Assembly (NCBI GenBank): GCA_964426845.1
Contig: CAYRSA010000003.1
Location: 70,751-134,750, forward strand
Direction of reading: 5' to 3'
Length of the DNA: 64,000 bases
From: an uncultured Candidatus Saccharibacteria bacterium
Lineage (GTDB): Bacteria > Patescibacteriota > Saccharimonadia > Saccharimonadales > JAGQNJ01
Both the position numbers and the translations under genes were made by a program. The notes under the pieces were generated by a model. It was not told the DNA's origin, did no database searches, and saw nothing but the letters and a program-made list of their open reading frames with translations. How positions within the stretch are numbered: the stretch's first letter is position 1; each line of letters begins with the position of its first letter. Shown piece after piece: positions 5,199 to 24,010 of the stretch.

Positions 5199-5200
5199 GC

Positions 5201-6421
5201 GTGCTCGCCTTTAAATACACCGCTCGTGACCCAGTAACCGGCAAGAAGGTGACTGCTGAAGTGTCGGCTGAAAATGAGCAGGCGGCCACTAAGCTTATTA
5301 AAGCCCAGGGCTTATCACCAATTGAGCTGAGTGTAAAATCTGGTGACCAAGGTGTCGTCGGGCGCTTTAGGCACCGCATCAAGGCTAAAGATAAAGTTCT
5401 TTTCGCTCGGCAGTTGTCAACTTTGATTAATGCTGGCTTACCGCTAGTCCAGAGCCTCAGGAATGTCTCGGCTCAAACCCAGAACAAATATTTGCAGGTT
5501 GTTATTAACGACGTAATAACTAGCGTTGAATCGGGTATGGCTTTCTCGGCCGCCTTGGCTAAGCACCCGCAAGTCTTCGACGAGGTGTTTGTTAACTTGG
5601 TAGCCGCTGGGGAAGCCTCGGGAACGCTTGATAAAACCCTCGAGCGTATTGCCAATCAGAAGGAAAAAGACGCTGAAATTCTTAGTAAAGTCCGAGGCGC
5701 CATGGTCTATCCAATAATCGTTTTGGTGGTCATGTTGGGCGTGGTAACTTTCATGATTGTACAGGTGCTTCCGGCAGTCGAAGAGGTCTACACCGGTATC
5801 CCTGGGGCAACTCTGCCACTAGTAACTAGGATATTGCTGGCCATTGCACACTTCACCATCAAGTTTTGGTGGTTAGAACTGATTATTATCGCTCTGCTAA
5901 TAGTTGGTACTAGTCGCTGGGCTAGAACTCTTGGGGGCAAACGGGTGATTGATAAGATGAAAATGCGTGCATGGCCAATTGGTCGGCTGTTCATGAAGGT
6001 CTACATGGCTCGTTTTACCCGCGTCGGCGCCACATTGGTAGCCAGTGGCGTTCCATTGATTCAAATGCTGGATATTACCGGTCGCTCTATTAACAATATC
6101 CATATCAAAGAGTCAATTGATAGAGCTGCCGAGAAAGTTAAGGGCGGCAAGGCCTTGTCGGACTCTTTGAAGGGGGACCCCAACTTCCTAGAACTGGTTC
6201 CCGACATGTTGCACATCGGCGAGCAGTCTGGCTCGGTCGAGCAAATGCTATCTAAAACCGCTGATTACTACGAACGAGAAGTCGATAACGAGATTCGAGC
6301 TATCTCGACAACTATCGAACCTGTCTTGATGATTCTTATGGGTGCCATGGCTATATTCATAGTTGTGGCCATATTACTGCCGGTTTACAGCCTGGTTGGT
6401 AGTGATATCCTAAGCGTATGA
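5201..6421 (+). CDS. pilC: Type IV pilus platform protein PilC (GspF family)
   Basis: 406 aa, GTG start. Two GspF-type repeats and polytopic TM segments. Confidence 0.9.
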   Translation: MLAFKYTARDPVTGKKVTAEVSAENEQAATKLIKAQGLSPIELSVKSGDQGVVGRFRHRIKAKDKVLFARQLSTLINAGLPLVQSLRNVSAQTQNKYLQVVINDVITSVESGMAFSAALAKHPQVFDEVFVNLVAAGEASGTLDKTLERIANQKEKDAEILSKVRGAMVYPIIVLVVMLGVVTFMIVQVLPAVEEVYTGIPGATLPLVTRILLAIAHFTIKFWWLELIIIALLIVGTSRWARTLGGKRVIDKMKMRAWPIGRLFMKVYMARFTRVGATLVASGVPLIQMLDITGRSINNIHIKESIDRAAEKVKGGKALSDSLKGDPNFLELVPDMLHIGEQSGSVEQMLSKTADYYEREVDNEIRAISTTIEPVLMILMGAMAIFIVVAILLPVYSLVGSDILSV

Positions 6422-7233
6422 TTTTTGTTGTCCTTGGTGTGCTGGGACTGTGTATGGGCAGTTTTGTTAACGCTTTGGTTTGGCGCCTACACCACCAAGA
6501 GACTTCAAAAAGACAATCAAAAAAATTTTCAATCGCTCATGGTCGTTCAATGTGCCCACATTGCCAACATGAGCTAGCAGTCAAAGATTTAATACCAGTG
6601 TTGAGCTGGTTATGGCTAGGTGGGAAGTGTCGTTACTGTCGTCGGCCAATCGGCTGGCAGTATCCACTGGTTGAATTATCAACCCTAGGCTTGTATCTCA
6701 TCAGTTATGTTTACTGGCCATACGGCTTTGACGCCTTCGGCATAGCCCTGTTGGTTATATGGTTAATCTTGTTGATTGGCCTGGTAGCCTTGTTGGTCTA
6801 TGATTTGCGCTGGATGATTTTGCCCAATCGCCTGGTCTACCCGCTGTATAGCCTGGCACTTGCCCAAATTGTGGTACTCATAGTCCAAGCCGGTTCGCTT
6901 AAGCCCTTGCTTGGCGCTGCAGGCGGCATTTTGGTAACCAGCGGGGTGTTTTACGCCCTGTTTCAGATATCCAAAGGCCAGTGGATTGGTGGTGGTGACG
7001 TCAAGCTGGCAGTCATCCTAGGGGTTTTTGCGGGAGGTTTTATAGAGGGAGTTATACTAATCTTTATGGCTTCACTGCTAGGGACGATTGTCTCGTTGCC
7101 GCTATTTATTATGGGCAAGGGCCGAGGTAAGCAAATACCATTTGGGCCATTTTTGATAATTGCTACCATTATTGTCTACCTATTTGGAGCCAGTATTATA
7201 GCCGAATATAAACAGCGGTTTCTTCTCATATAA
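6418..7233 (+). CDS. pilD: Prepilin peptidase PilD (A24 family)
   Basis: 271 aa. Cys pairs CPHC...CRYC, a polytopic membrane topology and the second catalytic Asp motif GGGDVKL. 4-nt overlap with pilC. Confidence 0.88.
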   Translation: MIFVVLGVLGLCMGSFVNALVWRLHHQETSKRQSKKFSIAHGRSMCPHCQHELAVKDLIPVLSWLWLGGKCRYCRRPIGWQYPLVELSTLGLYLISYVYWPYGFDAFGIALLVIWLILLIGLVALLVYDLRWMILPNRLVYPLYSLALAQIVVLIVQAGSLKPLLGAAGGILVTSGVFYALFQISKGQWIGGGDVKLAVILGVFAGGFIEGVILIFMASLLGTIVSLPLFIMGKGRGKQIPFGPFLIIATIIVYLFGASIIAEYKQRFLLI

Positions 7234-7246
7234 AAGACAAAGCTTA

Positions 7247-7255
7247 TGCTATACT
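7247..7255 (+). promoter_or_regulatory. Extended -10 box TGcTATACT, 7 nt before ATG 7263 (leaderless-type start)
   Basis: tgctatact at 7247-7255. The same 9-mer recurs upstream of other genes in the window. Confidence 0.45.
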
Positions 7256-7262
7256 TATAGCT

Positions 7263-8111
7263 ATGAAAGAGGGCAGGTCCGGCAGGCTTACTGGCGGGTT
7301 CACGATTTTAGAGGTGATGATTTTTTTAATCATCACTGGCGTGTTGCTCGTCGCCGCCATGTCTCTATTGAGCGGTCAGCATAATAGAACGGCCTTTAGG
7401 CAATCAATCCGCGAGAACGAATCACAGTTTAAGACTACTATCAACGAGGTGGCCAGTGGTTTTTATCCCAACAACGGCAATTTTAGTTGCACAGTCAGCC
7501 CGGGCGGCATACCGACTTTTACCAGCGCTACAGCAACCGAACAAGGCCAAAACGAAGACTGTCTTTTCCTGGGCAAAGTAGTCAGGGTTAATCCTGGAGG
7601 CACGAGTTATAGTATTTATACCATCGCCGGACGCCGACTAGTCAGTGGTACAGAGGTGACGCAACTACAAGACGCTAATCCCAGGCCAGTGGCCCGGTTT
7701 AGTGGTGATCCGGTAAATACACCGGATGTAACTCAGACGGTAAATCTGCCATCCGACATCCAGATAACTAAGGTAGTCAGCATAAGTACGGCCGGCGTGC
7801 AAACAACAATTGACGCTTTTGGGTTTATGATGTCGGTCGGCAAGACCTCTGGTGGTGACTTGGTTTCCGGGGCTCAGGCTATCAGTCTGGTGCCACTGCC
7901 TAATCCAGCTCCTAACGATAATGACTTCAAAACCGGTATAAGCGGGATGCAGCAAGTTCACGTTGGCAGTGCTAAAACGATCGTCTTATGCGTAAGACAA
8001 GGTGGGACCGGCGGTGCCCAAGGAGCAATTGTATTTGGGTCGCAAGGCCGACAACTTAGTACGGAAGTAATAATAGGAGCTCCGCCCAGCGGATATACGT
8101 GCCCAGCATGA
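7263..8111 (+). CDS. Prepilin-like protein (minor pilin candidate), copy 1
   Basis: Class III signal RLTGG/FTILEVMIFLIITGVLLVAAMSLL with Gly-1, Phe+1 and Glu+5. 282 aa. Confidence 0.7.
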   Translation: MKEGRSGRLTGGFTILEVMIFLIITGVLLVAAMSLLSGQHNRTAFRQSIRENESQFKTTINEVASGFYPNNGNFSCTVSPGGIPTFTSATATEQGQNEDCLFLGKVVRVNPGGTSYSIYTIAGRRLVSGTEVTQLQDANPRPVARFSGDPVNTPDVTQTVNLPSDIQITKVVSISTAGVQTTIDAFGFMMSVGKTSGGDLVSGAQAISLVPLPNPAPNDNDFKTGISGMQQVHVGSAKTIVLCVRQGGTGGAQGAIVFGSQGRQLSTEVIIGAPPSGYTCPA

Positions 8112-8611
8112 AACAACTAGATAGAAACCACCACATCAACAATCAACGAGGCGATACCATCGTCGAAGTTCTAATATGCCTGATGATTATCGGGCTGGCT
8201 ATAGGCATTGGCTACGGCATCGCCTCGCGTAGTCTAAAAGCCGCTCGCCAAGCTCAAGAGCGCACCGAGGCAGTTAAAATCGCTGAAGGCCAAGTCGAGA
8301 GGATTAAAGGTGTGTTGGCTGGAGTTAACACGGCTGAAAAGGATAAGATTACAGACCAGTCCACCAACGTTTTTTGTATGAATAGCTCTGGCGCAGTCGT
8401 CACCTTTCCTGGTGCCTACGGCACCACCATCAAGAATTTAGACAGCGACGATCTTACCAACTATCCAGCTGACTGTACTCAAGGGCTTTACAAGGTAATT
8501 ATTGACCAGGACACGGCAACCCCTAACCAGTTTGCTGTTGTGGTGCGCTGGGAAAGCCTTGGTGCCGGCAAACGTGAGGAAGTAAAAATTAAGTACAAGG
8601 TTTATCAATAG
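8099..8611 (+). CDS. Prepilin-like protein (minor pilin candidate), copy 1
   Basis: N-terminus NQRG/DTIVEVLICLMIIGLAIGIGYG with Glu+5. 170 aa. Overlaps the previous gene by 13 nt. Confidence 0.65.
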   Translation: MPSMKQLDRNHHINNQRGDTIVEVLICLMIIGLAIGIGYGIASRSLKAARQAQERTEAVKIAEGQVERIKGVLAGVNTAEKDKITDQSTNVFCMNSSGAVVTFPGAYGTTIKNLDSDDLTNYPADCTQGLYKVIIDQDTATPNQFAVVVRWESLGAGKREEVKIKYKVYQ

Positions 8612-9241
8612 ATGAAAAAGAACCAGGCCGGTTTTACTCTAGTTGAGCTACTAATCGCTACGTCCATCTTTGCCGTAATATTATTAGCGGCTACAGCCAC
8701 CTTGATTCAGGTTGGACGCATGTACTACAAGGGTGTGATTGCTTCCAGGACCCAGGATACAGCTCGAACTCTTACCGATGACATCAGCCGAAGTTTACAA
8801 TTTAGCGGCGGTACCGTACCAACTCTAAACCTGGGTGGCAGCCCTCCCGTATCAGCAATTTGCTTTGCTGACACCCGGCTTACCTTTGTCGTGAATGTCC
8901 AGGCCCCGGAAAATATTGCCCATGCCTTGTGGCAGGATACTATCGCTGGACCGGGCAGCTGTGCGGCTAGCCCAATCAGCCTGACGGCGCCGAATCCAGG
9001 CGGGCTTGACGGCAAGGATTTGCTCGACCCGCATATGCGTCTGACTAAGCTGTCGGTGACTCCGTCGGCAGGTAGCCCAGACGTTTACGACGTAGAAGTA
9101 GGCGTGGCCTACGGTGACACCGACCTTTTCAACCTTGATGGTATGGGCAAGCCAGTTTCTTGTAAGGGCTCGGTTCTTGGCGGTCAATGGTGCGCGATAT
9201 CGGAAATTAAAACGCAAGTGTTTAGAAGGGTAGAGGATTAA
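8612..9241 (+). CDS. Prepilin-like protein (PilW-type minor pilin candidate), copy 1
   Basis: Canonical N-methylation motif KKNQAG/FTLVELLIATSIFAVILLAA. 209 aa. Confidence 0.7.
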   Translation: MKKNQAGFTLVELLIATSIFAVILLAATATLIQVGRMYYKGVIASRTQDTARTLTDDISRSLQFSGGTVPTLNLGGSPPVSAICFADTRLTFVVNVQAPENIAHALWQDTIAGPGSCAASPISLTAPNPGGLDGKDLLDPHMRLTKLSVTPSAGSPDVYDVEVGVAYGDTDLFNLDGMGKPVSCKGSVLGGQWCAISEIKTQVFRRVED

Positions 9242-9242
9242 T

Positions 9243-10484
9243 ATGAGCAAGCAATCAACCAATAAACTCAGGGCTAATCAAAGCGGTCTAGTGTCAATCC
9301 TGGTCTCTATGGTATTCATTATCATACTGACCTTGATAACCACTAGCTTTGCTTTGCTTATGCGACGTGAACAACGCCAAGCTCTGGACCGTCAACTCAG
9401 CGCCCAAGCCTTCTATGCCGCCGAGAGCGGAATCAATGATGCCATCGAGAACATTAGTGCTGGCACGGCCGTAAGTCAGGACTGCAGCAACACGACTTCT
9501 GTAATAGGCGGATCAACCGACCTTGGTGACGGTTTATCAATCAGTTGTGTGCTGATTGATAAGACCCCGAGCTCACTTGAGTATTCTGTCCCTAAAAACG
9601 AATCTAGAGTCGTACCAGTCTTGACGTCAGAACCTATAAGTAAGATTAGAATTAGCTGGCAGGCGGAAAGCGGTCAAACGGCCTTTGCCGCCACTAGTTC
9701 TACTTTCAATTTTCCCCAGGGAGCATATGGCTCTAATGTCAACGTTGGCGATGTTGGAGTACTTCGGGTTTCGGCCATGCCAATTACTAGCGATGTCAGT
9801 CGGTCCACTCTAACCAATAACACTCAGACAATGTTTTTATACCCGCAAACCGGAAGCGGCTCACCAAACACGCGTAACTATAATGCTAGCCCCGCTGCGC
9901 AGGGAGACATCATCAACGGTAAGTGTAATTCTGCCAATACCCCATACTGCTCGGCGGAGATCACCAACCTGCCGGGTACAAACAACTACTACCTTCGAGT
10001 TAAGTCAATCTACAAAGATAGCAATGTATCTATCAAGGCTTACAATGCTGGTGGGACGGAGCTGCCATTACTGGGGACCCAGGCCAAAATTGACTCTACC
10101 GGCAAAGCCAACGATGTTTTACGCCGTATACAGGTTAGGGTACCGATTAACAACCAGTTTATGTATCCAGAATTTGCGGTGGAAACCGCTGACGACATCT
10201 GTAAGTTGCTGCTAGCCATTCCTCCCGATACCGTCCAGGACGGCGAATGCTATACCGATTCCGATACCCCACCACCACCGCCACCACCAGCAGCCGTAGA
10301 CGTCTGCTCAAACATTGCCGGAATTCAGACAACTGTGCCCGCAGGCTATGTCTCTAACGGTAGTGGTGAATGTACGGTACCACCACCGCCACCACCAGTT
10401 TTACCCCCTTGTGAACCCGCACCTGCTTGGTGGTTGCCAGCCTATGGTACGTGGCCGCAATATCCAAGTCCTTGCACTCCATGA
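9243..10484 (+). CDS. PilX/GspK-like minor pilin candidate with poly-Pro C-terminus, copy 1
   Basis: Pilin-like hydrophobic N-terminus NQSG/LVSILVSMVFIIILTL without Glu+5, followed by AQAFYAAESG. The C-terminal PPPPPPP tracts flank a Cys-bracketed 23-aa loop. Confidence 0.55.
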   Translation: MSKQSTNKLRANQSGLVSILVSMVFIIILTLITTSFALLMRREQRQALDRQLSAQAFYAAESGINDAIENISAGTAVSQDCSNTTSVIGGSTDLGDGLSISCVLIDKTPSSLEYSVPKNESRVVPVLTSEPISKIRISWQAESGQTAFAATSSTFNFPQGAYGSNVNVGDVGVLRVSAMPITSDVSRSTLTNNTQTMFLYPQTGSGSPNTRNYNASPAAQGDIINGKCNSANTPYCSAEITNLPGTNNYYLRVKSIYKDSNVSIKAYNAGGTELPLLGTQAKIDSTGKANDVLRRIQVRVPINNQFMYPEFAVETADDICKLLLAIPPDTVQDGECYTDSDTPPPPPPPAAVDVCSNIAGIQTTVPAGYVSNGSGECTVPPPPPPVLPPCEPAPAWWLPAYGTWPQYPSPCTP

Positions 10485-10578
10485 TAAGGCGGGTTAGGAG
10501 ATTGAAGAATATGACTGTAGAAGATGATAACATTAAGGTATAATCAAAGCATAAGAAGTTACGGGGCTAACAAGAAAA

Positions 10579-11169
10579 ATGGTTAAGAAGTTACCAGACC
10601 TGGAAAAACATAAACACTCTCGGCTGAGTCAGGTGTTTGGTTCAAAGCGCAATCGGATGCTAGTGATCGTTGGCGTACTTGTCTTGGCTATAGTTGTAGC
10701 GGCCGCCATAATTATCAGTCAGCCTTCTCAAGACGAGCAAGACATAGCTGATATGAATGCCCTCAGTGAACAATCGGCTGCTTTGGTGGCGGACTATAAG
10801 TATGGTCAAGCTATAGCCCTGTGGCAGGCATTCTTAAAGAAACCACTCAGCCCAGACGTAAAGTGTGAGGCTAATTTGCGCTATGGCATAACCCTTTTAG
10901 ATAGCTTTAAGTACAATGATGCCTACGATAACCTCGTCGGCCTGCAGGAATCATGCAAAAATGTCGATCAGTACACTTTGACCTTAGGCTTAGCTAAGAG
11001 CGCCGATGGCGGGGCCCGAATTGTTCCAGCTATCGACAATTACAAAAAGGTCATTGACCAATTGAAACAAAGGCAAGAAAATCCACCCAAAGATTTCAAC
11101 GCTGAAGAGAATCAAAAGATGATTGCCGATTACCAAGAGACAATAAAGATTTTGGAGAGCAACTTATGA
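10579..11169 (+). CDS. Membrane-anchored helical-repeat (TPR-like) protein, copy 1
   Basis: 196 aa with an N-terminal TM anchor and then alpha-helical repeats (YKYGQAIALWQAFLKK). A TATAAT box lies at 10539-10544. 4-nt overlap with the next gene. Confidence 0.5.
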   Translation: MVKKLPDLEKHKHSRLSQVFGSKRNRMLVIVGVLVLAIVVAAAIIISQPSQDEQDIADMNALSEQSAALVADYKYGQAIALWQAFLKKPLSPDVKCEANLRYGITLLDSFKYNDAYDNLVGLQESCKNVDQYTLTLGLAKSADGGARIVPAIDNYKKVIDQLKQRQENPPKDFNAEENQKMIADYQETIKILESNL

Positions 11170-13496
11170 TCGCCCGAAAGCTAAAACGCCTAGTTCTGCT
11201 TGCTGCGGTGAGTTTATTATTTTTGACAGGTGTGGCTGGCTCGCTGCTGTTCCAGGCTAGCAAGGCTTTTGCCCAGGCGCCAGGCCTTAGGTTCCAGGTA
11301 CTGAAGAACGGTTCTTGTACTACTTCGGTAAATTCCGGAGACTTTGTAAATGTCAAAATATTTCGTGACGCCACCAGCGGTACTATAAGTAGCCTACAAG
11401 TTAAAGTTAATGGTGCCAATGTGACTACAAATCCCAGCTCAATTACCGGTTCGGCTAGCAACTTAGAAATTGCTGCGCCGACGCTGTCACAAAACCCCAG
11501 CACTATAACCGTCACCGGTTGGAATAACAACCAAAGCCAATCTGTAACATTTACCGCCTATTGCCAAGCTTCTGGTGTCAATTATGGCACTAACGGCTGG
11601 GGAGTGACAGTTAACACCAATACCAGTGGCGGCAGTAGCGGAACCGTCAATACAACTGCCTGCACGCCAACAGCCTGGTTTCAGCAGGGTAATTCTAGCT
11701 CGGCCAGCAGAATGTCCTATCTAGACTTGTCCCAGTCGAGTGCGACAGTTGTGAATAGCGGAGCCGCCTATACAGCCCAATTAAACGGCTCTGGTTATAA
11801 TAAGACCGACCAATACTTCTATGGCTTTACGCCTAGTTCTGGTTACGGTACGCCCGGTACTTTGTACCAATTCGATAGTCAAGGTGGCTCTAGAAGTCTG
11901 GGAATAGTCCTGCCTTCAGCAACCTACGGTGATGGTTGGTTTGCCGGTGATGTTCGAGGAGCTGGCATTCCTGGCCAAGATAACTACCTGTACGTAGTTC
12001 AATTAAACAGCAACAAGATCTACAAGATTAATCTGGGAACTGTAAGCGGCGCAGCCACCAACAGAATAGCTGCAACCGTTACTACTAGCAGAACTACCAG
12101 GCTTAACGATGTCGCCTTTAGTCCCCAGGACGGCAAGCTTTACGGATTTGATCAGAACCAAGGGGTTTTTGTAAGAGTTGACCCAAGTAGCGGCACAGTA
12201 ACTAATATTAGCCAGCCCTATACAGCCAATCCTCACGGTGTAGCCTGGTTCTACCAAACTAGCAGTGGCACCGCTTTTTACTCCTATGACAACACAGGAC
12301 AAATATACAGGTTTCTAGGTATCGAAAACTACGGTCCTGGCAATCTTTTGCCAGTCCAGCCACCTTGGAAATCGGCTACCTCAACCCAACAAAACGATGG
12401 TTCAGTCTGTGCCACTACTGGAGACCCGTTCTGTACGGCTCCTGATGGCTCCACCTGGCCCATTGGCCACGCCAATTGTAATCCTCCACCACCGGACGTT
12501 TGCCCTAACATAGCCGGCAGCCAGACGGCTGTGCCAACTGGCTACGTCAAGAACTCCGCTGGAGACTGTGTCATACCAGCTACGCCTTATCTAAGAGCCT
12601 ACGGCAACGATTTGGCGGTGGGTAGTGCTTTTGGGGCTAGTTGTGACGTTCGTGATAATGATGCTACATTCCGAGCTCGCGCTAGGTCAGTAACTAGTAA
12701 TACTTGGTCTGGGGCCTCCGGCCAATTTGCGCTCTTGGCTTTGGGCCAAATTGACGGCTTCTATAGCTCGAACCTGCGCAATCCGCCCACAGGTCCTCCT
12801 AATCCGCGAGTCGGTTTAACTTTCGGTAACTTCAACGGCTCGGCCCAGGTTACTGACTACGGGGGCTCAGGTGCTCAAAGCCGCTGTTTACCAGATTTCA
12901 TGAACAAGGCTTTTGCTGGTCAGTTAGAGACGGGCAATCGTACAATCAACACCACATCAGTCCCCGAATGCACAACTGCTACAGCAGCAACCTGTAGACA
13001 GGCTAGATTCATCCGCGGCGACGTCTATATCAATGGCAATATCACCTTTGATAACGCGGGTGGCTGGTCATCACCGAATAAGATCCCTAGTTACTACTTG
13101 GTCGTGGAGGGAAATATCTACATAGCTCCGGGAGTTACTCAATTAGACGGCGTGTTCATAGCCCAACCTAAGTTCACCGGTGGGGTAATGGACGCCAACA
13201 CCGGACAGATCCGCACCTGCGCCAGCTCGACGGGTGGAAACTTCACAACCATAAGCGCCTGTAACAATACATTGACAGTTAATGGAGCATTTATTGCTCA
13301 CCGCGTACTTTTCCAGCGCACAAAAGGTGACTCTAACGCCGCCAGCGCCACTGAAGGAGTCAATGATACTGGCAATGTGGCTGAGGTATTCAAGTTTAGC
13401 CCCGAGACTTATCTGGCGACACCGCCAGCAAATTTCCAAACCGGTCAGTCTCTCAAGAAGTACGATTTCATCACCAGTCTGCCGCCAGTCCTGTAA
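11166..13496 (+). CDS. Large secreted protein, putative pilus-tip adhesin (PilY1-position), copy 1
   Basis: 776 aa with a signal peptide ending AFAQA. It has a beta-rich Thr/Ser/Gly composition and propeller-like repeats (DVAFSPQDGKLYGFDQNQGVFVRVDPSSG). The functional call rests on its position after the minor pilins only. Confidence 0.5.
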   Translation: MIARKLKRLVLLAAVSLLFLTGVAGSLLFQASKAFAQAPGLRFQVLKNGSCTTSVNSGDFVNVKIFRDATSGTISSLQVKVNGANVTTNPSSITGSASNLEIAAPTLSQNPSTITVTGWNNNQSQSVTFTAYCQASGVNYGTNGWGVTVNTNTSGGSSGTVNTTACTPTAWFQQGNSSSASRMSYLDLSQSSATVVNSGAAYTAQLNGSGYNKTDQYFYGFTPSSGYGTPGTLYQFDSQGGSRSLGIVLPSATYGDGWFAGDVRGAGIPGQDNYLYVVQLNSNKIYKINLGTVSGAATNRIAATVTTSRTTRLNDVAFSPQDGKLYGFDQNQGVFVRVDPSSGTVTNISQPYTANPHGVAWFYQTSSGTAFYSYDNTGQIYRFLGIENYGPGNLLPVQPPWKSATSTQQNDGSVCATTGDPFCTAPDGSTWPIGHANCNPPPPDVCPNIAGSQTAVPTGYVKNSAGDCVIPATPYLRAYGNDLAVGSAFGASCDVRDNDATFRARARSVTSNTWSGASGQFALLALGQIDGFYSSNLRNPPTGPPNPRVGLTFGNFNGSAQVTDYGGSGAQSRCLPDFMNKAFAGQLETGNRTINTTSVPECTTATAATCRQARFIRGDVYINGNITFDNAGGWSSPNKIPSYYLVVEGNIYIAPGVTQLDGVFIAQPKFTGGVMDANTGQIRTCASSTGGNFTTISACNNTLTVNGAFIAHRVLFQRTKGDSNAASATEGVNDTGNVAEVFKFSPETYLATPPANFQTGQSLKKYDFITSLPPVL

Positions 13497-13613
13497 GTAT
13501 TTTTCCACAACGGGGTAAACGGACCTTAAAAGAGCCTTGCAATTCAAAGTGTTTATGGTTACCATACAAGTATCAATCTATAAACGGGCATCGAATAAAG
13601 GGGTAAAATAACA

Positions 13614-14093
13614 ATGAAAAAACTACAAAAAGAGCAAAAAGGCTTCACAATCATCGAAGTTATGATCGTCTTGGTCATCGCTGCGGTGATCATCCTGATC
13701 GTTTTCTTGGCGGTTCCAGCCTTGCAACGTAACGCTCGAAACAACCAACGTAAGAGCGACGCCGCTCGTATTAGCGCAGCTGTTAGTGAGTATACCAACA
13801 ATACTAACGGTAGCCTGCCAACTACTTGGGGTAACATCAAGCCTTACCTAGGTAACATGGCTTTCTATACCACCCTGCCAGCAGACGGTGACGCAATTGG
13901 TAACGCGACAGCCAACCAAACAGTTGCTACCGCTGACACCGCTCCAGCTGTGGCCAAAAGGGCAACCTGCAACACTACGGCCGGCGACGTTAACATCGGT
14001 AAAGCCGTAACCAGTACTCAAGATAGACAATTTGTCGTTCTCTACAAAACTGAAGGTGGATCAACCGAACCTTCTCAGTGTATTGCTGGCTAA
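13614..14093 (+). CDS. pilA: Major type IV pilin, copy 1
   Basis: KEQKG/FTIIEVMIVLVIAAVIILIVFLAV with Glu+5. 159 aa with a C-terminal Cys pair. It has its own upstream spacer and RBS and is followed by a strong terminator. Confidence 0.8.
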   Translation: MKKLQKEQKGFTIIEVMIVLVIAAVIILIVFLAVPALQRNARNNQRKSDAARISAAVSEYTNNTNGSLPTTWGNIKPYLGNMAFYTTLPADGDAIGNATANQTVATADTAPAVAKRATCNTTAGDVNIGKAVTSTQDRQFVVLYKTEGGSTEPSQCIAG

Positions 14094-14112
14094 TAGCTAA
14101 CAACTAGTACTT

Positions 14113-14136
14113 AAACAGCCCTTCGGGGCTGTTTTT
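14113..14136. terminator. Bidirectional intrinsic terminator between pilA and xer, copy 1
   Basis: aaacagccc-ttcg-gggctgttttt: a 9-bp stem and UUCG loop, with an A-tract on one side and a T-tract on the other. Confidence 0.7.
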
Positions 14137-14144
14137 GATTGGCT

Positions 14145-15059
14145 TTATTCAGCTTTGCGGTGATATTGGTCGTGAACTTTTTTGAGGTGGGGGTCAGTGA
14201 CATGAGTGTATATCTGGGTAGTAGCCACGTTGCTGTGGCCCAGCATGGCCTGGACGGACCGCAGATCGGCTCCATTCATAAGCAAGTCAGTGGCGAAAGA
14301 GTGGCGCAGGGTGTGCGGGGAGACGTGTTTGGTGATGCCGGCTAGCTTGGCGTAGCGGGCCACCATCCGCTGGATGCTGCGGGCAGTTAGGCGTTTATAG
14401 TTGCCGCTATTATCAGCAGTTGAGCGGCCACCATAGCTAATAAACAGGGGTGGCAGACTATCCTCACGTCGGTTTAAATAGCCCTGAACCCAATCAGCCG
14501 CGGTAGGGCTTATGAAAATCGGCCGGTCCTTCTGGCCCTTGCCTCGGACCATGAACTCCCGGCGTTGCATGTTTACATGGTCGCGGTTGAGATTGACCAG
14601 TTCCGAGACCCGCAAGCCACTGGAGAATAGCAATTCCAAGATGGCTCGGTCGCGCAGTCCGCTGATTTCTTGGATCTTGGGTTGGGCGAACAGGCGTTCT
14701 AGCTCTTCAGGGTTAAGGAAGGTTACTTGCTTTCGTCGAGTGCGGGCTAGTTCAATTTTGTCAGCTGACAGGGCAGGGATGCTCCGCCGAGCACAGAATT
14801 TCAGAAATGAACGGAGGGCAATTAGATGATAGTTTTGGGTAGTTTTGTCCAACTCATCAGAGGTGTTGGTGCCCAGGCGGTTCAGCCACAGGCGCCATTT
14901 TTGGATAAGTTCAGGAGTGATATCCGAAACGTTGATATCGCCGGCATAGTCTTCTAGACGGGTGAGGTAGTGGTCGTAGTTATGAATGGTTTTTCCGGAG
15001 CGGTTTTGCTCGATCTCTAAGTATTCTAGAAAATCGGTCTTGGCTTTGGAAAAACGCAT
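14145..15059 (-). CDS. Xer-type site-specific tyrosine recombinase, copy 1
   Basis: 305 aa from ATG 15059 (MRFSKAKTDF). Catalytic signature GLRVSEL, HTLRHSFAT, LGHSNVATTQIYTHV. The listed 407-aa ORF is an artefactual upstream extension. Confidence 0.85.
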   Translation of the reverse strand: MRFSKAKTDFLEYLEIEQNRSGKTIHNYDHYLTRLEDYAGDINVSDITPELIQKWRLWLNRLGTNTSDELDKTTQNYHLIALRSFLKFCARRSIPALSADKIELARTRRKQVTFLNPEELERLFAQPKIQEISGLRDRAILELLFSSGLRVSELVNLNRDHVNMQRREFMVRGKGQKDRPIFISPTAADWVQGYLNRREDSLPPLFISYGGRSTADNSGNYKRLTARSIQRMVARYAKLAGITKHVSPHTLRHSFATDLLMNGADLRSVQAMLGHSNVATTQIYTHVTDPHLKKVHDQYHRKAE

Positions 15060-15161
15060 ACTCTTATTGTAATACACTAATGCTTCCAACCGGCATTCTA
15101 ATCTGTTATACTGCCCATAAGAATACAAAATGTATACAATAATCAGCAAAAGGAGACAGCC

Positions 15162-15182
15162 TTGGAACGAACTCTCATTATT
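15162..15182 (+). other. Duplicated ndk 5' end (TTG start + 6 codons) at the duplication joint
   Basis: Matches 23361-23381 except one base at 15179. The ndk frame stops after 11 codons (MERTLIIDWWW*). Confidence 0.85.
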
Positions 15183-15432
15183 GATTGGTGGTGGTGACGT
15201 CAAGCTGGCAGTCATCCTAGGGGTTTTTGCAGGAGGTTTTATAGAGGGAGTTATACTAATCTTTATTGCTTCACTGCTGGGGACGATTGTCTCGTTACCG
15301 CTAGTTATTATGGGCAAGGGCCGAGGTAAGCAAATACCATTTGGCCCCTTTTTGATAATTGCCACCATTATCGTTTACCTATTTGGAGCCAGTATTATAG
15401 CCGAGTATAAACAGCGGTTCCTTCTCATATAA
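15183..15432 (+). pseudogene. pilD: pilD 3' fragment (codons ~189-271) created by the duplication
   Basis: Aligns to 6984-7233 with 12 substitutions. It lacks the N-terminal two thirds of pilD. Confidence 0.85.
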
Positions 15433-15461
15433 AAAACAAAGCTTATGCTATACTTATAGCT

Positions 15462-16310
15462 ATGAAAGAGGGCAGGTCCGGCAGGCTTACTGGCGGGTTC
15501 ACGATTTTAGAGGTGATGATTTTTTTAATCATCACTGGCGTGTTGCTCGTCGCCGCCATGTCTCTATTGAGCGGTCAGCATAATAGAACGGCCTTTAGGC
15601 AATCAATCCGCGAGAACGAATCACAGTTTAAGACTACTATCAACGAGGTGGCCAGTGGTTTTTATCCCAACAACGGCAATTTTAGTTGCACAGTCAGCCC
15701 GGGCGGCATACCGACTTTTACCAGCGCTACAGCAACCGAACAAGGCCAAAACGAAGACTGTCTTTTCCTGGGCAAAGTAGTCAGGGTTAATCCTGGAGGC
15801 ACGAGTTATAGTATTTATACCATCGCCGGACGCCGACTAGTCAGTGGTACAGAGGTGACGCAACTACAAGACGCTAATCCCAGGCCAGTGGCCCGGTTTA
15901 GTGGTGATCCGGTAAATACACCGGATGTAACTCAGACGGTAAATCTGCCATCCGACATCCAGATAACTAAGGTAGTCAGCATAAGTACGGCCGGCGTGCA
16001 AACAACAATTGACGCTTTTGGGTTTATGATGTCGGTCGGCAAGACCTCTGGTGGTGACTTGGTTTCCGGGGCTCAGGCTATCAGTCTGGTGCCACTGCCT
16101 AATCCAGCTCCTAACGATAATGACTTCAAAACCGGTATAAGCGGGATGCAGCAAGTTCACGTTGGCAGTGCTAAAACGATCGTCTTATGCGTAAGACAAG
16201 GTGGGACCGGCGGTGCCCAAGGAGCAATTGTATTTGGGTCGCAAGGCCGACAACTTAGTACGGAAGTAATAATAGGAGCTCCGCCCAGCGGATATACGTG
16301 CCCAGCATGA
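15462..16310 (+). CDS. Prepilin-like protein (minor pilin candidate), copy 2
   Basis: Translation identical to 7263-8111 (offset +8199). Confidence 0.7.
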   Translation: MKEGRSGRLTGGFTILEVMIFLIITGVLLVAAMSLLSGQHNRTAFRQSIRENESQFKTTINEVASGFYPNNGNFSCTVSPGGIPTFTSATATEQGQNEDCLFLGKVVRVNPGGTSYSIYTIAGRRLVSGTEVTQLQDANPRPVARFSGDPVNTPDVTQTVNLPSDIQITKVVSISTAGVQTTIDAFGFMMSVGKTSGGDLVSGAQAISLVPLPNPAPNDNDFKTGISGMQQVHVGSAKTIVLCVRQGGTGGAQGAIVFGSQGRQLSTEVIIGAPPSGYTCPA

Positions 16311-16810
16311 AACAACTAGATAGAAACCACCACATCAACAATCAACGAGGCGATACCATCGTCGAAGTTCTAATATGCCTGATGATTATCGGGCTGGCTA
16401 TAGGCATTGGCTACGGCATCGCCTCGCGTAGTCTAAAAGCCGCTCGCCAAGCTCAAGAGCGCACCGAGGCAGTTAAAATCGCTGAAGGCCAAGTCGAGAG
16501 GATTAAAGGTGTGTTGGCTGGAGTTAACACGGCTGAAAAGGATAAGATTACAGACCAGTCCACCAACGTTTTTTGTATGAATAGCTCTGGCGCAGTCGTC
16601 ACCTTTCCTGGTGCCTACGGCACCACCATCAAGAATTTAGACAGCGACGATCTTACCAACTATCCAGCTGACTGTACTCAAGGGCTTTACAAGGTAATTA
16701 TTGACCAGGACACGGCAACCCCTAACCAGTTTGCTGTTGTGGTGCGCTGGGAAAGCCTTGGTGCCGGCAAACGTGAGGAAGTAAAAATTAAGTACAAGGT
16801 TTATCAATAG
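16298..16810 (+). CDS. Prepilin-like protein (minor pilin candidate), copy 2
   Basis: Translation identical to 8099-8611 (offset +8199). Confidence 0.65.
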   Translation: MPSMKQLDRNHHINNQRGDTIVEVLICLMIIGLAIGIGYGIASRSLKAARQAQERTEAVKIAEGQVERIKGVLAGVNTAEKDKITDQSTNVFCMNSSGAVVTFPGAYGTTIKNLDSDDLTNYPADCTQGLYKVIIDQDTATPNQFAVVVRWESLGAGKREEVKIKYKVYQ

Positions 16811-17440
16811 ATGAAAAAGAACCAGGCCGGTTTTACTCTAGTTGAGCTACTAATCGCTACGTCCATCTTTGCCGTAATATTATTAGCGGCTACAGCCACC
16901 TTGATTCAGGTTGGACGCATGTACTACAAGGGTGTGATTGCTTCCAGGACCCAGGATACAGCTCGAACTCTTACCGATGACATCAGCCGAAGTTTACAAT
17001 TTAGCGGCGGTACCGTACCAACTCTAAACCTGGGTGGCAGCCCTCCCGTATCAGCAATTTGCTTTGCTGACACCCGGCTTACCTTTGTCGTGAATGTCCA
17101 GGCCCCGGAAAATATTGCCCATGCCTTGTGGCAGGATACTATCGCTGGACCGGGCAGCTGTGCGGCTAGCCCAATCAGCCTGACGGCGCCGAATCCAGGC
17201 GGGCTTGACGGCAAGGATTTGCTCGACCCGCATATGCGTCTGACTAAGCTGTCGGTGACTCCGTCGGCAGGTAGCCCAGACGTTTACGACGTAGAAGTAG
17301 GCGTGGCCTACGGTGACACCGACCTTTTCAACCTTGATGGTATGGGCAAGCCAGTTTCTTGTAAGGGCTCGGTTCTTGGCGGTCAATGGTGCGCGATATC
17401 GGAAATTAAAACGCAAGTGTTTAGAAGGGTAGAGGATTAA
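16811..17440 (+). CDS. Prepilin-like protein (PilW-type candidate), copy 2
   Basis: Translation identical to 8612-9241 (offset +8199). Confidence 0.7.
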   Translation: MKKNQAGFTLVELLIATSIFAVILLAATATLIQVGRMYYKGVIASRTQDTARTLTDDISRSLQFSGGTVPTLNLGGSPPVSAICFADTRLTFVVNVQAPENIAHALWQDTIAGPGSCAASPISLTAPNPGGLDGKDLLDPHMRLTKLSVTPSAGSPDVYDVEVGVAYGDTDLFNLDGMGKPVSCKGSVLGGQWCAISEIKTQVFRRVED

Positions 17441-17441
17441 T

Positions 17442-18683
17442 ATGAGCAAGCAATCAACCAATAAACTCAGGGCTAATCAAAGCGGTCTAGTGTCAATCCT
17501 GGTCTCTATGGTATTCATTATCATACTGACCTTGATAACCACTAGCTTTGCTTTGCTTATGCGACGTGAACAACGCCAAGCTCTGGACCGTCAACTCAGC
17601 GCCCAAGCCTTCTATGCCGCCGAGAGCGGAATCAATGATGCCATCGAGAACATTAGTGCTGGCACGGCCGTAAGTCAGGACTGCAGCAACACGACTTCTG
17701 TAATAGGCGGATCAACCGACCTTGGTGACGGTTTATCAATCAGTTGTGTGCTGATTGATAAGACCCCGAGCTCACTTGAGTATTCTGTCCCTAAAAACGA
17801 ATCTAGAGTCGTACCAGTCTTGACGTCAGAACCTATAAGTAAGATTAGAATTAGCTGGCAGGCGGAAAGCGGTCAAACGGCCTTTGCCGCCACTAGTTCT
17901 ACTTTCAATTTTCCCCAGGGAGCATATGGCTCTAATGTCAACGTTGGCGATGTTGGAGTACTTCGGGTTTCGGCCATGCCAATTACTAGCGATGTCAGTC
18001 GGTCCACTCTAACCAATAACACTCAGACAATGTTTTTATACCCGCAAACCGGAAGCGGCTCACCAAACACGCGTAACTATAATGCTAGCCCCGCTGCGCA
18101 GGGAGACATCATCAACGGTAAGTGTAATTCTGCCAATACCCCATACTGCTCGGCGGAGATCACCAACCTGCCGGGTACAAACAACTACTACCTTCGAGTT
18201 AAGTCAATCTACAAAGATAGCAATGTATCTATCAAGGCTTACAATGCTGGTGGGACGGAGCTGCCATTACTGGGGACCCAGGCCAAAATTGACTCTACCG
18301 GCAAAGCCAACGATGTTTTACGCCGTATACAGGTTAGGGTACCGATTAACAACCAGTTTATGTATCCAGAATTTGCGGTGGAAACCGCTGACGACATCTG
18401 TAAGTTGCTGCTAGCCATTCCTCCCGATACCGTCCAGGACGGCGAATGCTATACCGATTCCGATACCCCACCACCACCGCCACCACCAGCAGCCGTAGAC
18501 GTCTGCTCAAACATTGCCGGAATTCAGACAACTGTGCCCGCAGGCTATGTCTCTAACGGTAGTGGTGAATGTACGGTACCACCACCGCCACCACCAGTTT
18601 TACCCCCTTGTGAACCCGCACCTGCTTGGTGGTTGCCAGCCTATGGTACGTGGCCGCAATATCCAAGTCCTTGCACTCCATGA
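17442..18683 (+). CDS. PilX/GspK-like minor pilin candidate, copy 2
   Basis: Translation identical to 9243-10484 (offset +8199). Confidence 0.55.
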   Translation: MSKQSTNKLRANQSGLVSILVSMVFIIILTLITTSFALLMRREQRQALDRQLSAQAFYAAESGINDAIENISAGTAVSQDCSNTTSVIGGSTDLGDGLSISCVLIDKTPSSLEYSVPKNESRVVPVLTSEPISKIRISWQAESGQTAFAATSSTFNFPQGAYGSNVNVGDVGVLRVSAMPITSDVSRSTLTNNTQTMFLYPQTGSGSPNTRNYNASPAAQGDIINGKCNSANTPYCSAEITNLPGTNNYYLRVKSIYKDSNVSIKAYNAGGTELPLLGTQAKIDSTGKANDVLRRIQVRVPINNQFMYPEFAVETADDICKLLLAIPPDTVQDGECYTDSDTPPPPPPPAAVDVCSNIAGIQTTVPAGYVSNGSGECTVPPPPPPVLPPCEPAPAWWLPAYGTWPQYPSPCTP

Positions 18684-18777
18684 TAAGGCGGGTTAGGAGA
18701 TTGAAGAATATGACTGTAGAAGATGATAACATTAAGGTATAATCAAAGCATAAGAAGTTACGGGGCTAACAAGAAAA

Positions 18778-19368
18778 ATGGTTAAGAAGTTACCAGACCT
18801 GGAAAAACATAAACACTCTCGGCTGAGTCAGGTGTTTGGTTCAAAGCGCAATCGGATGCTAGTGATCGTTGGCGTACTTGTCTTGGCTATAGTTGTAGCG
18901 GCCGCCATAATTATCAGTCAGCCTTCTCAAGACGAGCAAGACATAGCTGATATGAATGCCCTCAGTGAACAATCGGCTGCTTTGGTGGCGGACTATAAGT
19001 ATGGTCAAGCTATAGCCCTGTGGCAGGCATTCTTAAAGAAACCACTCAGCCCAGACGTAAAGTGTGAGGCTAATTTGCGCTATGGCATAACCCTTTTAGA
19101 TAGCTTTAAGTACAATGATGCCTACGATAACCTCGTCGGCCTGCAGGAATCATGCAAAAATGTCGATCAGTACACTTTGACCTTAGGCTTAGCTAAGAGC
19201 GCCGATGGCGGGGCCCGAATTGTTCCAGCTATCGACAATTACAAAAAGGTCATTGACCAATTGAAACAAAGGCAAGAAAATCCACCCAAAGATTTCAACG
19301 CTGAAGAGAATCAAAAGATGATTGCCGATTACCAAGAGACAATAAAGATTTTGGAGAGCAACTTATGA
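18778..19368 (+). CDS. Membrane-anchored helical-repeat protein, copy 2
   Basis: Translation identical to 10579-11169 (offset +8199). Confidence 0.5.
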   Translation: MVKKLPDLEKHKHSRLSQVFGSKRNRMLVIVGVLVLAIVVAAAIIISQPSQDEQDIADMNALSEQSAALVADYKYGQAIALWQAFLKKPLSPDVKCEANLRYGITLLDSFKYNDAYDNLVGLQESCKNVDQYTLTLGLAKSADGGARIVPAIDNYKKVIDQLKQRQENPPKDFNAEENQKMIADYQETIKILESNL

Positions 19369-21695: not shown

Positions 21696-21812
21696 GTATT
21701 TTTCCACAACGGGGTAAACGGACCTTAAAAGAGCCTTGCAATTCAAAGTGTTTATGGTTACCATACAAGTATCAATCTATAAACGGGCATCGAATAAAGG
21801 GGTAAAATAACA

Positions 21813-22292
21813 ATGAAAAAACTACAAAAAGAGCAAAAAGGCTTCACAATCATCGAAGTTATGATCGTCTTGGTCATCGCTGCGGTGATCATCCTGATCG
21901 TTTTCTTGGCGGTTCCAGCCTTGCAACGTAACGCTCGAAACAACCAACGTAAGAGCGACGCCGCTCGTATTAGCGCAGCTGTTAGTGAGTATACCAACAA
22001 TACTAACGGTAGCCTGCCAACTACTTGGGGTAACATCAAGCCTTACCTAGGTAACATGGCTTTCTATACCACCCTGCCAGCAGACGGTGACGCAATTGGT
22101 AACGCGACAGCCAACCAAACAGTTGCTACCGCTGACACCGCTCCAGCTGTGGCCAAAAGGGCAACCTGCAACACTACGGCCGGCGACGTTAACATCGGTA
22201 AAGCCGTAACCAGTACTCAAGATAGACAATTTGTCGTTCTCTACAAAACTGAAGGTGGATCAACCGAACCTTCTCAGTGTATTGCTGGCTAA
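21813..22292 (+). CDS. pilA: Major type IV pilin, copy 2
   Basis: Translation identical to 13614-14093 (offset +8199). Confidence 0.8.
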   Translation: MKKLQKEQKGFTIIEVMIVLVIAAVIILIVFLAVPALQRNARNNQRKSDAARISAAVSEYTNNTNGSLPTTWGNIKPYLGNMAFYTTLPADGDAIGNATANQTVATADTAPAVAKRATCNTTAGDVNIGKAVTSTQDRQFVVLYKTEGGSTEPSQCIAG

Positions 22293-22311
22293 TAGCTAAC
22301 AACTAGTACTT

Positions 22312-22335
22312 AAACAGCCCTTCGGGGCTGTTTTT
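22312..22335. terminator. Bidirectional intrinsic terminator, copy 2
   Basis: Same hairpin as 14113-14136. Confidence 0.7.
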
Positions 22336-22343
22336 GATTGGCT

Positions 22344-23258
22344 TTATTCAGCTTTGCGGTGATATTGGTCGTGAACTTTTTTGAGGTGGGGGTCAGTGAC
22401 ATGAGTGTATATCTGGGTAGTAGCCACGTTGCTGTGGCCCAGCATGGCCTGGACGGACCGCAGATCGGCTCCATTCATAAGCAAGTCAGTGGCGAAAGAG
22501 TGGCGCAGGGTGTGCGGGGAGACGTGTTTGGTGATGCCGGCTAGCTTGGCGTAGCGGGCCACCATCCGCTGGATGCTGCGGGCAGTTAGGCGTTTATAGT
22601 TGCCGCTATTATCAGCAGTTGAGCGGCCACCATAGCTAATAAACAGGGGTGGCAGACTATCCTCACGTCGGTTTAAATAGCCCTGAACCCAATCAGCCGC
22701 GGTAGGGCTTATGAAAATCGGCCGGTCCTTCTGGCCCTTGCCTCGGACCATGAACTCCCGGCGTTGCATGTTTACATGGTCGCGGTTGAGATTGACCAGT
22801 TCCGAGACCCGCAAGCCACTGGAGAATAGCAATTCCAAGATGGCTCGGTCGCGCAGTCCGCTGATTTCTTGGATCTTGGGTTGGGCGAACAGGCGTTCTA
22901 GCTCTTCAGGGTTAAGGAAGGTTACTTGCTTTCGTCGAGTGCGGGCTAGTTCAATTTTGTCAGCTGACAGGGCAGGGATGCTCCGCCGAGCACAGAATTT
23001 CAGAAATGAACGGAGGGCAATTAGATGATAGTTTTGGGTAGTTTTGTCCAACTCATCAGAGGTGTTGGTGCCCAGGCGGTTCAGCCACAGGCGCCATTTT
23101 TGGATAAGTTCAGGAGTGATATCCGAAACGTTGATATCGCCGGCATAGTCTTCTAGACGGGTGAGGTAGTGGTCGTAGTTATGAATGGTTTTTCCGGAGC
23201 GGTTTTGCTCGATCTCTAAGTATTCTAGAAAATCGGTCTTGGCTTTGGAAAAACGCAT
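22344..23258 (-). CDS. Xer-type site-specific tyrosine recombinase, copy 2
   Basis: Identical protein from ATG 23258. The listed ORF start at 23327 is an upstream extension. Confidence 0.85.
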   Translation of the reverse strand: MRFSKAKTDFLEYLEIEQNRSGKTIHNYDHYLTRLEDYAGDINVSDITPELIQKWRLWLNRLGTNTSDELDKTTQNYHLIALRSFLKFCARRSIPALSADKIELARTRRKQVTFLNPEELERLFAQPKIQEISGLRDRAILELLFSSGLRVSELVNLNRDHVNMQRREFMVRGKGQKDRPIFISPTAADWVQGYLNRREDSLPPLFISYGGRSTADNSGNYKRLTARSIQRMVARYAKLAGITKHVSPHTLRHSFATDLLMNGADLRSVQAMLGHSNVATTQIYTHVTDPHLKKVHDQYHRKAE

Positions 23259-23360
23259 ACTCTTATTGTAATACACTAATGCTTCCAACTGGCATTCTAA
23301 TCTGTTATACTGCCCACAAGAATACAAAATGTATACAATAATCAGTAAAAGGAGACAGCC

Positions 23361-23873
23361 TTGGAACGAACTCTCATAATTTTAAAACCGGATGCCGTTA
23401 AGCGCGGTATAGTCGGCGAAATCATCAGCCGCTTTGAAAAAGCCGGCCTGAAAATTGTTGGAGCCAAGATGTTACAACCGGATTATGATCATTATCACAC
23501 GCATTACGAGGGTATCAGTAAGATGATTTCTCGCCGAGGGCAGGAGGCTTTCGATGTTACCCTGGAAATGATGCAAGAAGGGCCTGTTATTGCGTTTGTT
23601 CTAGAAGGTGTTAATGCCGCAAGTTTGGTGCGAAAGATGGTAGGTGACACCGAGCCCGAGAAGGCTCTGCCAGGTACGGTTCGTGGCGATTACGCCCACA
23701 TGGGCTTTGCTCACTCCAATAAAGAGAGGATTGGTGTGCCAAATCTGATTCACGCCTCCGGTGATGCTGACGAGGCCAAGGTGGAGATTGCTCATTGGTT
23801 TTCGGAAGCTGAGCTATTTGAATACGAAGCTGTTCACGAAGTTTACACTCAAGCCAGAAGTCGCAAGAAATAA
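23361..23873 (+). CDS. ndk: Nucleoside diphosphate kinase
   Basis: TTG start with AAAGGAG 7 nt upstream. MERTLIILKPDAVKRG and the active-site His motif NLIHASGD are present. 170 aa. Confidence 0.9.
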   Translation: MERTLIILKPDAVKRGIVGEIISRFEKAGLKIVGAKMLQPDYDHYHTHYEGISKMISRRGQEAFDVTLEMMQEGPVIAFVLEGVNAASLVRKMVGDTEPEKALPGTVRGDYAHMGFAHSNKERIGVPNLIHASGDADEAKVEIAHWFSEAELFEYEAVHEVYTQARSRKK

Positions 23874-23876: not shown

Positions 23877-23961
23877 TGGTGCCCCGGGCAGGATAGACGC
23901 CCGTTACCTTCGGTAACGAACGAACCTGCGACTATTGCCTGCTAGCGCAGTCACGTCGCAG
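23877..23961 (-). other. Partial copy of the tRNA-Arg 3' end with a 27-nt hairpin insertion in the T-loop position
   Basis: 23877-23894 and 23922-23932 equal the tRNA-Arg 3' portion (T arm, acceptor 3' strand, CCA). The tc of the T-loop is replaced by agacgcccgttaccttcggtaacgaac (23895-23921). 23955-23961 is complementary to 23926-23932. No 5' tRNA half is present. Confidence 0.5.
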
Positions 23962-23987
23962 AACCGTATCTTACAAGATGACCAACG

Positions 23988-24010
23988 AAAAAACTGGCCT
24001 TTCGACCAGT
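23988..24010 (-). terminator. Intrinsic terminator after tRNA-Arg
   Basis: The minus strand reads ACUGGUC-GAAA-GGCCAGU followed by UUUUUU. Confidence 0.6.

Follow-up and report, generated by a model that had tools for sequence, protein, structure and literature searches.

A head-to-tail duplication in the type IV pilus cluster of a sewage Saccharimonadales-like bacterium, with a joint that probably carries alleles of a second lineage

Duplications can pass between bacterial genomes as well as arise within them. In Salmonella, work from the Roth laboratory is reported to show that duplication join points are inherited by transduction. Foreign gene ends can also be delivered by integrative elements, and in Escherichia coli phage 21 and e14 supply a replacement 3' end of icd. 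Tandem merodiploids are generated by transformation in Streptococcus pneumoniae (PMC3784515). Among the Saccharibacteria, natural competence is known for other members of the group (PMC10633639), and type IV pili serve host attachment and motility (PMC9894109, PMC11623550).

Here we describe a duplication in the type IV pilus region of a Saccharimonadales-like bacterium from sewage. Like the merodiploids made by transformation or transduction, it is arranged head-to-tail, with a joint of the kind that can be inherited when a fragment pairs at two separated sites. As in transformation merodiploids, it occurs in a competent host group and has what would be donor alleles at the joint and recipient alleles at the outer edges. 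It differs from the pneumococcal cases in two respects: alternative pairing there uses repeats of hundreds of base pairs, whereas the left arm here would be about 100 nt long with 4-5 mismatches, and the case made here, including the direction of transfer, is drawn from sequence alone.

The window, by which we mean the whole stretch of 64,000 nucleotides analysed, carries a type IV pilus cluster in its first 24 kb, as judged from the ORF list and from Pfam matches on identical or orthologous proteins. The genes to which we refer below are:

Start of the cluster, before pilB: pilM/N/O-like genes
2294-4090: pilB
4113-5198: pilT
5201-6421: pilC
6418..7233, + strand: intact pilD, encoding a prepilin peptidase of 271 aa, 'alpha' allele (ORF; Pfam PF06750 and PF01478 on the identical protein)
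Downstream of pilD: four minor-pilin-like genes, a 196-aa gene, a 776-aa DUF6923 gene and a 159-aa pilin
14145..15089, - strand: xer-type tyrosine recombinase, copy 1 (Pfam PF02899 and PF00589 on orthologues)
22344-23288: xer, copy 2
23361..23873, + strand: intact ndk with a TTG start, after the divergently oriented xer

Among species representatives, the nearest relatives of the PilD protein belong to Saccharibacteria/Saccharimonadales MAGs at 53-62% identity, and the JGI contigs and GTDB representatives contain only relatives with PilD identity of at most 62%. The close relatives all come from sewage or wastewater metagenome assemblies. Our comparison set consists of about 40 same-species contigs from Logan and ENA assemblies, retrieved by exact-protein look-up. 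In every retrieved contig that spans the region, the gene order is pilD-pilins-xer-ndk, in single copy. The pilD sequence of the window is found unchanged in ten of them (L001-L010), and the exact 314-aa Xer protein of the window has no match elsewhere on record.

Several further features of the region were recorded in passing. The pilN/pilO-like genes (751-2000) diverge from L001 by up to 25% per 250 bp while pilB to pilD are nearly identical, and on this comparison the segment is another sharply bounded mosaic tract. A proline-flanked motif is common to a 413-aa minor-pilin-like protein and the 776-aa DUF6923 protein (10300-10420 and 12430-12520), reading DVCSNIAGIQTTVPAGYVSNGSGEC in one and DVCPNIAGSQTAVPTGYVKNSAGDC in the other. 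A tRNA-Arg(CCT) gene (24019-24095, minus strand) follows ndk; one contig, L037, is without about 124 bp between the two (23895-24018), and a Logan contig breaks inside the tRNA gene at 24050. The segment 26330-29360 encodes three neighbouring paralogous secreted proteins (245, 376 and 354 aa) with a high content of T, S, G and N. All three end in a common motif, which reads ...TYICTATF in the second and third and ...VLVCTGTY in the first, and the segment is strongly divergent among strains (up to about 20% in L011-L013). Beyond them lies a giant ORF of 2285 aa (31740-38597) with internal repeats, 33525-33773 and 34164-34412, that are 82% identical; contig L048 terminates at 33554, within the repeat.

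An ungapped self-comparison at an offset of 8199 recovers a head-to-tail duplication with a unit of 8199 bp and a single junction, without spacer or indels:

6984..15182, + strand: copy 1, from the pilD 3' end through xer, the xer-ndk spacer and the first 7 ndk codons
15183..23381, + strand: copy 2, from the offset self-comparison
15182..15183, + strand: the joint, ndk codon 7 fused to the third base of pilD codon 189
7237..15090, + strand: core of 7854 bp, 100% identical between copies; second copy at 15436-23289

The left breakpoint, between 6983 and 6984, falls at the third base of pilD codon 189, and the right breakpoint, between 23381 and 23382, after 7 ndk codons. No pilD-like sequence is present past 23381, where identity falls to about 25%. 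With 0 bp of microhomology the joint is blunt, an unusual state for a spontaneous duplication, in which a microhomology or repeat at the junction is customary though not obligatory. The 31-mer that spans it occurs once in the window, and the marker sequence of the junction between 15182 and 15183 is GAACGAACTCTCATTATTGATTGGTGGTGGTGACGT.

The initial annotation had placed all mismatches between the copies within 346 bp at the joint, and the self-comparison reproduced this exactly, with 17 mismatched sites: 13 at the left edge (7032, 7068, 7080, 7098, 7105, 7146, 7149, 7164, 7173, 7176, 7206, 7221 and 7236) and 4 at the right edge (15091, 15118, 15147 and 15179). For 17 uniformly placed differences, the probability that all fall within 346 of 8199 bp is about 4e-24. 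The third-position bias reported for the pilD fragment is also confirmed. Twelve of the 13 left-edge sites lie in pilD codons 205-268, 11 of these 12 at third positions (binomial P = 4.7e-5) and 10 of them synonymous, the two replacements being M217I (7068) and F230V (7105); the remaining site, 7236, is 3 nt past the pilD stop codon. At the right edge, 15091, 15118 and 15147 fall in the xer-ndk spacer, and 15179 is the third base of ndk codon 6, where the change is synonymous. Four edge segments thus have to be compared with other strains:

6984..7236, + strand: outer left edge (A), alpha, continuous with the alpha upstream flank
15183..15436, + strand: joint-side left edge (A'), beta at 13 sites, pilD codons 189-271 plus 3 nt
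15091..15182, + strand: joint-side right edge (C), xer-ndk spacer plus 7 ndk codons, common population haplotype
23290..23381, + strand: outer right edge (C'), private haplotype T,C,T,T,A

Two pilD alleles about 5% apart are present in the population: alpha, in the intact gene of the window and in L001-L010, and beta, in L011, L012 and L031-L033. Over the whole intact gene they differ by 27 synonymous and 13 non-synonymous changes. The outer left edge shows 0/253 differences from L001-L010, L012, L031 and L033. At the joint side, the intact pilD of L032, from another sewage strain, has the same base as the window at 10 of the 13 sites and that of L011 at 5 of the 13; once translated, the joint-side fragment is the same as the C-terminus of L032 PilD at the protein level. 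The earlier deduction that the fragment's differences accumulated under coding constraint was therefore right, since the fragment is the 3' end of a beta pilD that is intact in L032 and L011, and its synonymous bias goes back to the divergence of alpha and beta as intact and functional genes. The beta alleles at 7206, 7221 and 7236 occur in none of the sampled strains.

The same contigs reveal where beta gives way to alpha in single-copy genomes. The switch lies between 6956 and 7032 in L012, L031 and L033, between 7105 and 7146 in L011, and between 7176 and 7206 in L032. As L012, L031 and L033 are beta upstream and already alpha before 7032, the alpha/beta breakpoints vary among strains, and at least 4 different ones are found at the pilD 3' end. 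No beta contig has a variant at 6983. L032 ends one base beyond the unit boundary, a suggestive coincidence that we discarded because a 122-nt overlap with L014 accounts for it, in agreement with an assembly k that we infer to be 123 and with branching near 15061.

The right edge gives a comparable picture. The joint-side segment has the haplotype C,T,C,T,T at 15091, 15118, 15147, 15173 and 15179 and shows 0/92 differences from six single-copy contigs (L002, L015, L016, L031, L037 and L039). The outer segment shows 4/92 differences from every other full-length contig covering 23290..23381. Its T,C,T, at sites 23290, 23317 and 23346, is a private combination, of which contig L035 has the T,C of the first two sites, and this combination is continuous with a private haplotype of the xer 5' part, 'w', which occupies 14907-15065 and is present in both copies. 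Taken together, the xer 5' part and spacer (14907-15147 and 23106-23346) have 16-22 differences per 244 bp from all other contigs. Elsewhere, the w haplotype was found only in the sequencing run SRR14932609, and its combination with C,T,C was seen in no sampled strain. At 15091, 15118 and 15147 the bases of L035 are T,C,C, a combination absent from both window copies. It fits a genome with C,T,C in copy 1 and T,C,C in copy 2 if one bubble was popped during assembly, but this does not account for the T of the window at 23346, where L035, at its position 7911, has C; the discord may reflect conversion between the copies, differences among cells or an error in the consensus.

Thus, by allele matching in the pilD and spacer contigs, common alleles found in other strains flank the joint on both sides, while both outer edges run on into the host genome's own flanking haplotypes. 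We conclude that the 346 bp flanking the joint probably represent alleles of a second lineage of the same species, beta, and not divergence after duplication. Of the three origins that the initial annotation had considered, second-strain ancestry of the joint region is the one supported on both sides, by the 10 of 13 pilD sites of L032 and by the spacer without a difference in 92 bp; the comparison with related pilD and xer-ndk spacer alleles that it had suggested as a check found the joint alleles in single-copy strains.

The identity of the two cores has to be read against the same population. Between the window and full-length contigs, 7237-14846 differs at 0-14 of 7610 bp. In these very contigs pilD is about 5% divergent (37-44 differences in 700-890 bp), the xer 5' part 7-9%, and ndk 0 or 10%. 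On these alignments, the abrupt fall in divergence from about 5% to 0% is a population-wide feature and not one that the duplication created. The two copies are identical over 7.85 kb because the core is almost invariant population-wide, and core identity between copies is no greater than between strains. A further consequence of this near-invariance is that the true length of the foreign tract is hidden, as it may run unseen into the core. The pattern suggests that the pilin cassette may have been swept recently, in a gene-specific manner.

These observations bear directly on the possibility of an old duplication, in which the core is homogenised by gene conversion while the edges diverge in place and the chimeric ORF at the joint is under purifying selection. 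Divergent edges around an identical core are the classical signature of concerted evolution, the third-position bias is compatible with constraint, and the T,C,C of L035 could reflect a small inter-copy conversion. Yet 10 of the 13 left-edge alleles and all right-edge alleles pre-exist in single-copy strains, a match that new mutations would not produce; with the core invariant in the population at large, its identity holds no conversion signal; and the fragment lacks two thirds of PilD, in an ORF that begins out of frame in the ndk leader. Nor is selection on the chimeric ORF needed, given that the protein encoded by the fragment is the intact C-terminus of L032 PilD. This origin, also raised in the initial annotation, is accordingly rejected because the variants are population alleles and the core is invariant everywhere, and we regard it as most improbable.

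The population as a whole is mosaic: SNPs occur in tracts with strain-specific breakpoints, and alleles are matched base for base. The locus therein resembles the mosaic genomes and gene-specific sweeps described elsewhere, which have clustered SNP tracts, shared alleles, variable breakpoints and, here, a near-invariant cassette amid flanks of 5-10% divergence. It departs from them in that the tract sits on a duplication joint, which no single-copy donor supplies colinearly.

Is the joint real? SRR14932609 is a short-read run, possibly from the window's own source sample, for which Logan contigs assembled at k=31 are available, and it holds the window strain at 100% identity over the flanks. 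We reasoned before the look-up that a k=31 graph branching at the left breakpoint would end a contig at 6983+30, i.e. at 7013, while a mixture of single-copy alpha and beta strains would break contigs at the alpha/beta SNPs. The Logan overlap of k-1 = 30 was checked on two contigs from another run. L044, a 20.9-kb contig found via pilC, has its last 7013 bp 100.000% identical to window 1-7013 and ends exactly at 7013, leaving a truncated pilD of 198 aa. It is unbroken across 6103-6956, a stretch with about 45 sites that distinguish alpha from beta, and it follows that beta pilD is present in this run from 6984 onward only, as in the duplication. Its end at 7013 further implies that the sequence starting at 6984 has two different left neighbours in the read set. 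On the other side, the 9.5-kb contig L048 matches window 24050-33554 at 100%. The core is spanned by L035, which covers 7237-15178, has the private w haplotype and equals copy 1 at 7940 of 7942 positions, with 1-2 mismatches against the two copies. The A/A' dimorphism at 7236 is present in the run, again without beta pilD upstream. Contigs of this run end at 7013, 7237 and 15178; the junction k-mer itself was not seen, the joint unitig being only 64 nt long. The duplication thus appears real; the graph branch between 6983 and 6984 supports its left breakpoint and, indirectly, the junction.

Searches for the joint itself were negative: its 36-mer has 0 matches in JGI metagenomes and IMG/VR, and neither the products of the joint ORFs (100, 93, 83 and 407 aa) nor the 174-aa product of the edge-truncated ndk are on record. 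This is weak evidence, as the joint unitig is 64 nt at k=31, a consequence of the 48-bp run at 6984-7031 that A and A' have in common. It nevertheless counts towards an artefact, in which a circular sequence or two contigs whose ends overlap by 8.2 kb were left untrimmed and the tips derive from a few minority-strain reads. A blunt, 0-bp joint at arbitrary points within two genes and foreign alleles confined to its vicinity would also be expected of such an error, and the locus shares with the false duplications of long-read assemblies a blunt joint, an identical core and differences at the joint-proximal ends only. An artefact, however, leaves no trace among read k-mers, whereas a contig of SRR14932609 ends at 6983+30; that is, a separate k-mer assembly of the read set branches exactly at the window breakpoint. 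The dimorphism at 7236 without beta pilD upstream, and an independent real joint at the same locus in another sample (L034, below), also stand against it. The untrimmed-overlap or contig-tip explanation was rejected once the forecast contig end had been matched, and we hold it to be very improbable.

A chimera of strains in the assembly would take a different form, namely a strain with the duplication and beta edges in both copies, accompanied by a near-identical single-copy alpha/w strain from which the consensus took its outer edges. Sewage populations of the species are indeed mosaic and strains often co-occur, as the breaks of Logan contigs at SNPs in many runs indicate; the 31-mer graph cannot connect the upstream flank to the alleles past the 48-bp shared run; and the T,C,C of L035 is a sign of some heterogeneity at 15147. 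Against this, the flanks in SRR14932609 are unbroken contigs of 20.9 kb and 9.5 kb with 100% identity to the window and no alpha/beta breaks in 6103-6956, and the chimera demands two strains that differ at the four edges only, as well as more recombination events than one mosaic genome does. We therefore consider it improbable. This is the assembly chimera of two strains put forward in the initial annotation, and it is made unlikely by a run whose graph branches exactly at the left breakpoint and in which 6984 is preceded by no beta pilD.

If the joint is real and its flanks are beta, how did it come to lie in its present surroundings? The locus around it is alpha on the left and private w on the right. 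Beta alleles come to within 3 nt of the joint on its left side (15179) and start 49 nt away on its right. A single-copy beta donor cannot provide both sides colinearly, so the joint would have formed between two beta-type sequences, as the beta alleles flanking it indicate, and inter-strain homologous recombination would later have parted it from its original flanks. Two routes can be envisaged. Firstly, a fragment carrying the join point may have been imported into an alpha/w genome by transformation. Secondly, the duplication may have occurred in a beta-edged ancestor, with two separate imports then overwriting the outer edges. We lean towards import of the join-point fragment over the overwriting route, with a confidence that falls just short of even, because it takes one event and leaves the private haplotype, w with T,C, whole in copy 2; it needs a switch from w to beta in copy 1 within 25 bp (15066-15090). 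The overwriting of both outer edges is possible, if doubtful. The direction of transfer is inferred by parsimony only. A Campbell-type insertion of a circularised beta fragment was considered less likely, as it predicts a donor-type xer 5' part and copy 1 is w.

A second rearrangement of the same block was found in another sample. L034 (ENA ERZ3455832 NODE_2375) is a SPAdes contig of 7360 bp with identical 55-nt ends, and corresponds to window 7107-14411 closed on itself at a 12-mer:

7095..7106, + strand: 12-mer GTTGCCGCTATT in alpha pilD, also present at 14400-14411 (xer) and 22599-22610

The closure thus joins pilD to xer at 12 bp of microhomology (GTTGCCGCTATT) and truncates xer. Its breakpoints are unlike those of the window, and so is its microhomology, 12 bp as against 0 bp. 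From its ends and breakpoints, we take L034 to be a rearrangement of the pilin block that arose independently and gave a circle or a tandem array, and its joint indicates that the locus does rearrange in nature. Together, the two joints suggest recurrent amplification of the cassette, possibly for gene dosage.

This finding places the locus near the spontaneous, RecA-independent duplications that arise at microhomologies under gene-dosage selection. The 8-kb unit, the breakpoints in unrelated genes and a second joint at the locus with 12-bp microhomology are all in keeping with such events. The window joint itself, however, has 0 bp of microhomology and foreign flanks, and an intragenomic event predicts neither.

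The xer gene beside the joint raises one more alternative, an integrative element that inserted into the pilD 3' end and brought a replacement 3' end, here as a tandem double insertion. As with phage 21 and e14 in icd, a tyrosine recombinase gene adjoins the joint, and the second gene 3' end beside it differs mostly at synonymous sites. The comparison fails on structure: two units come with just two pilD 3' ends and no third copy, the right end lies inside ndk and has none, no core sequence or other att structure is common to the two breakpoints, the cargo would be the core pilus operon, and the L034 joint cuts through xer itself. No empty pilD-ndk site was found among the retrieved contigs spanning the region. 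This reading was rejected for want of a third pilD end, the position of the right end in ndk and the missing empty-site strain, and its probability is in our view negligible.

We then considered what the joint encodes. Of pilD and ndk, it is the outer copies that are intact. The first 21 nt of ndk are duplicated at 15162-15182, where the ndk frame stops after 11 codons, and the PilD fragment (residues 189-271) starts at the GGGD motif, without the N-terminal two thirds. Two chimeric ORFs result:

15130..15432, + strand: chimeric ORF of 100 aa, in which PilD residues 190-271 follow 17 codons that come from the spacer/ndk leader and are not read in the ndk frame
14145..15368, - strand: ORF of 407 aa, xer extended upstream through the joint, antisense to the pilD fragment

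The 407-aa ORF is probably a by-product of the join. A homology search with the chimeric ORF returned distant peptidase fragments only, aligned to the PilD part only, and did not return the known pilD itself. Neither the record of products nor the homology search indicates a function for either chimeric ORF, and a promoter/terminator scan around the joint gave nothing above the shuffled expectation.

As a whole, the case is a new instance of known processes, tandem duplication and inter-strain recombination. A bolder view is that the joint behaves as a horizontally transferred 'allele', which would have been made in one lineage and moved by natural transformation, re-creating the merodiploid in another lineage of this CPR/Saccharibacteria species. 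The driver would be selection for extra copies of a pilin cassette that is sweeping and has been independently amplified or circularised elsewhere. We offer this tentatively and think it rather unlikely to hold in full. What makes the locus of moderate interest is the foreign ancestry of the joint, the independent second joint and a pilin cassette that looks recently swept. More generally, in a recombining population the differing edges of a duplication tell of ancestry rather than of how old the duplication is, and the identity of its core need not be informative. A cassette that is duplicated here, independently rearranged elsewhere and near-invariant throughout is a likely target of selection on the interaction with the host, and if the joint did move between strains, it would represent natural transfer of a duplication by transformation in an uncultured, ultrasmall episymbiont.
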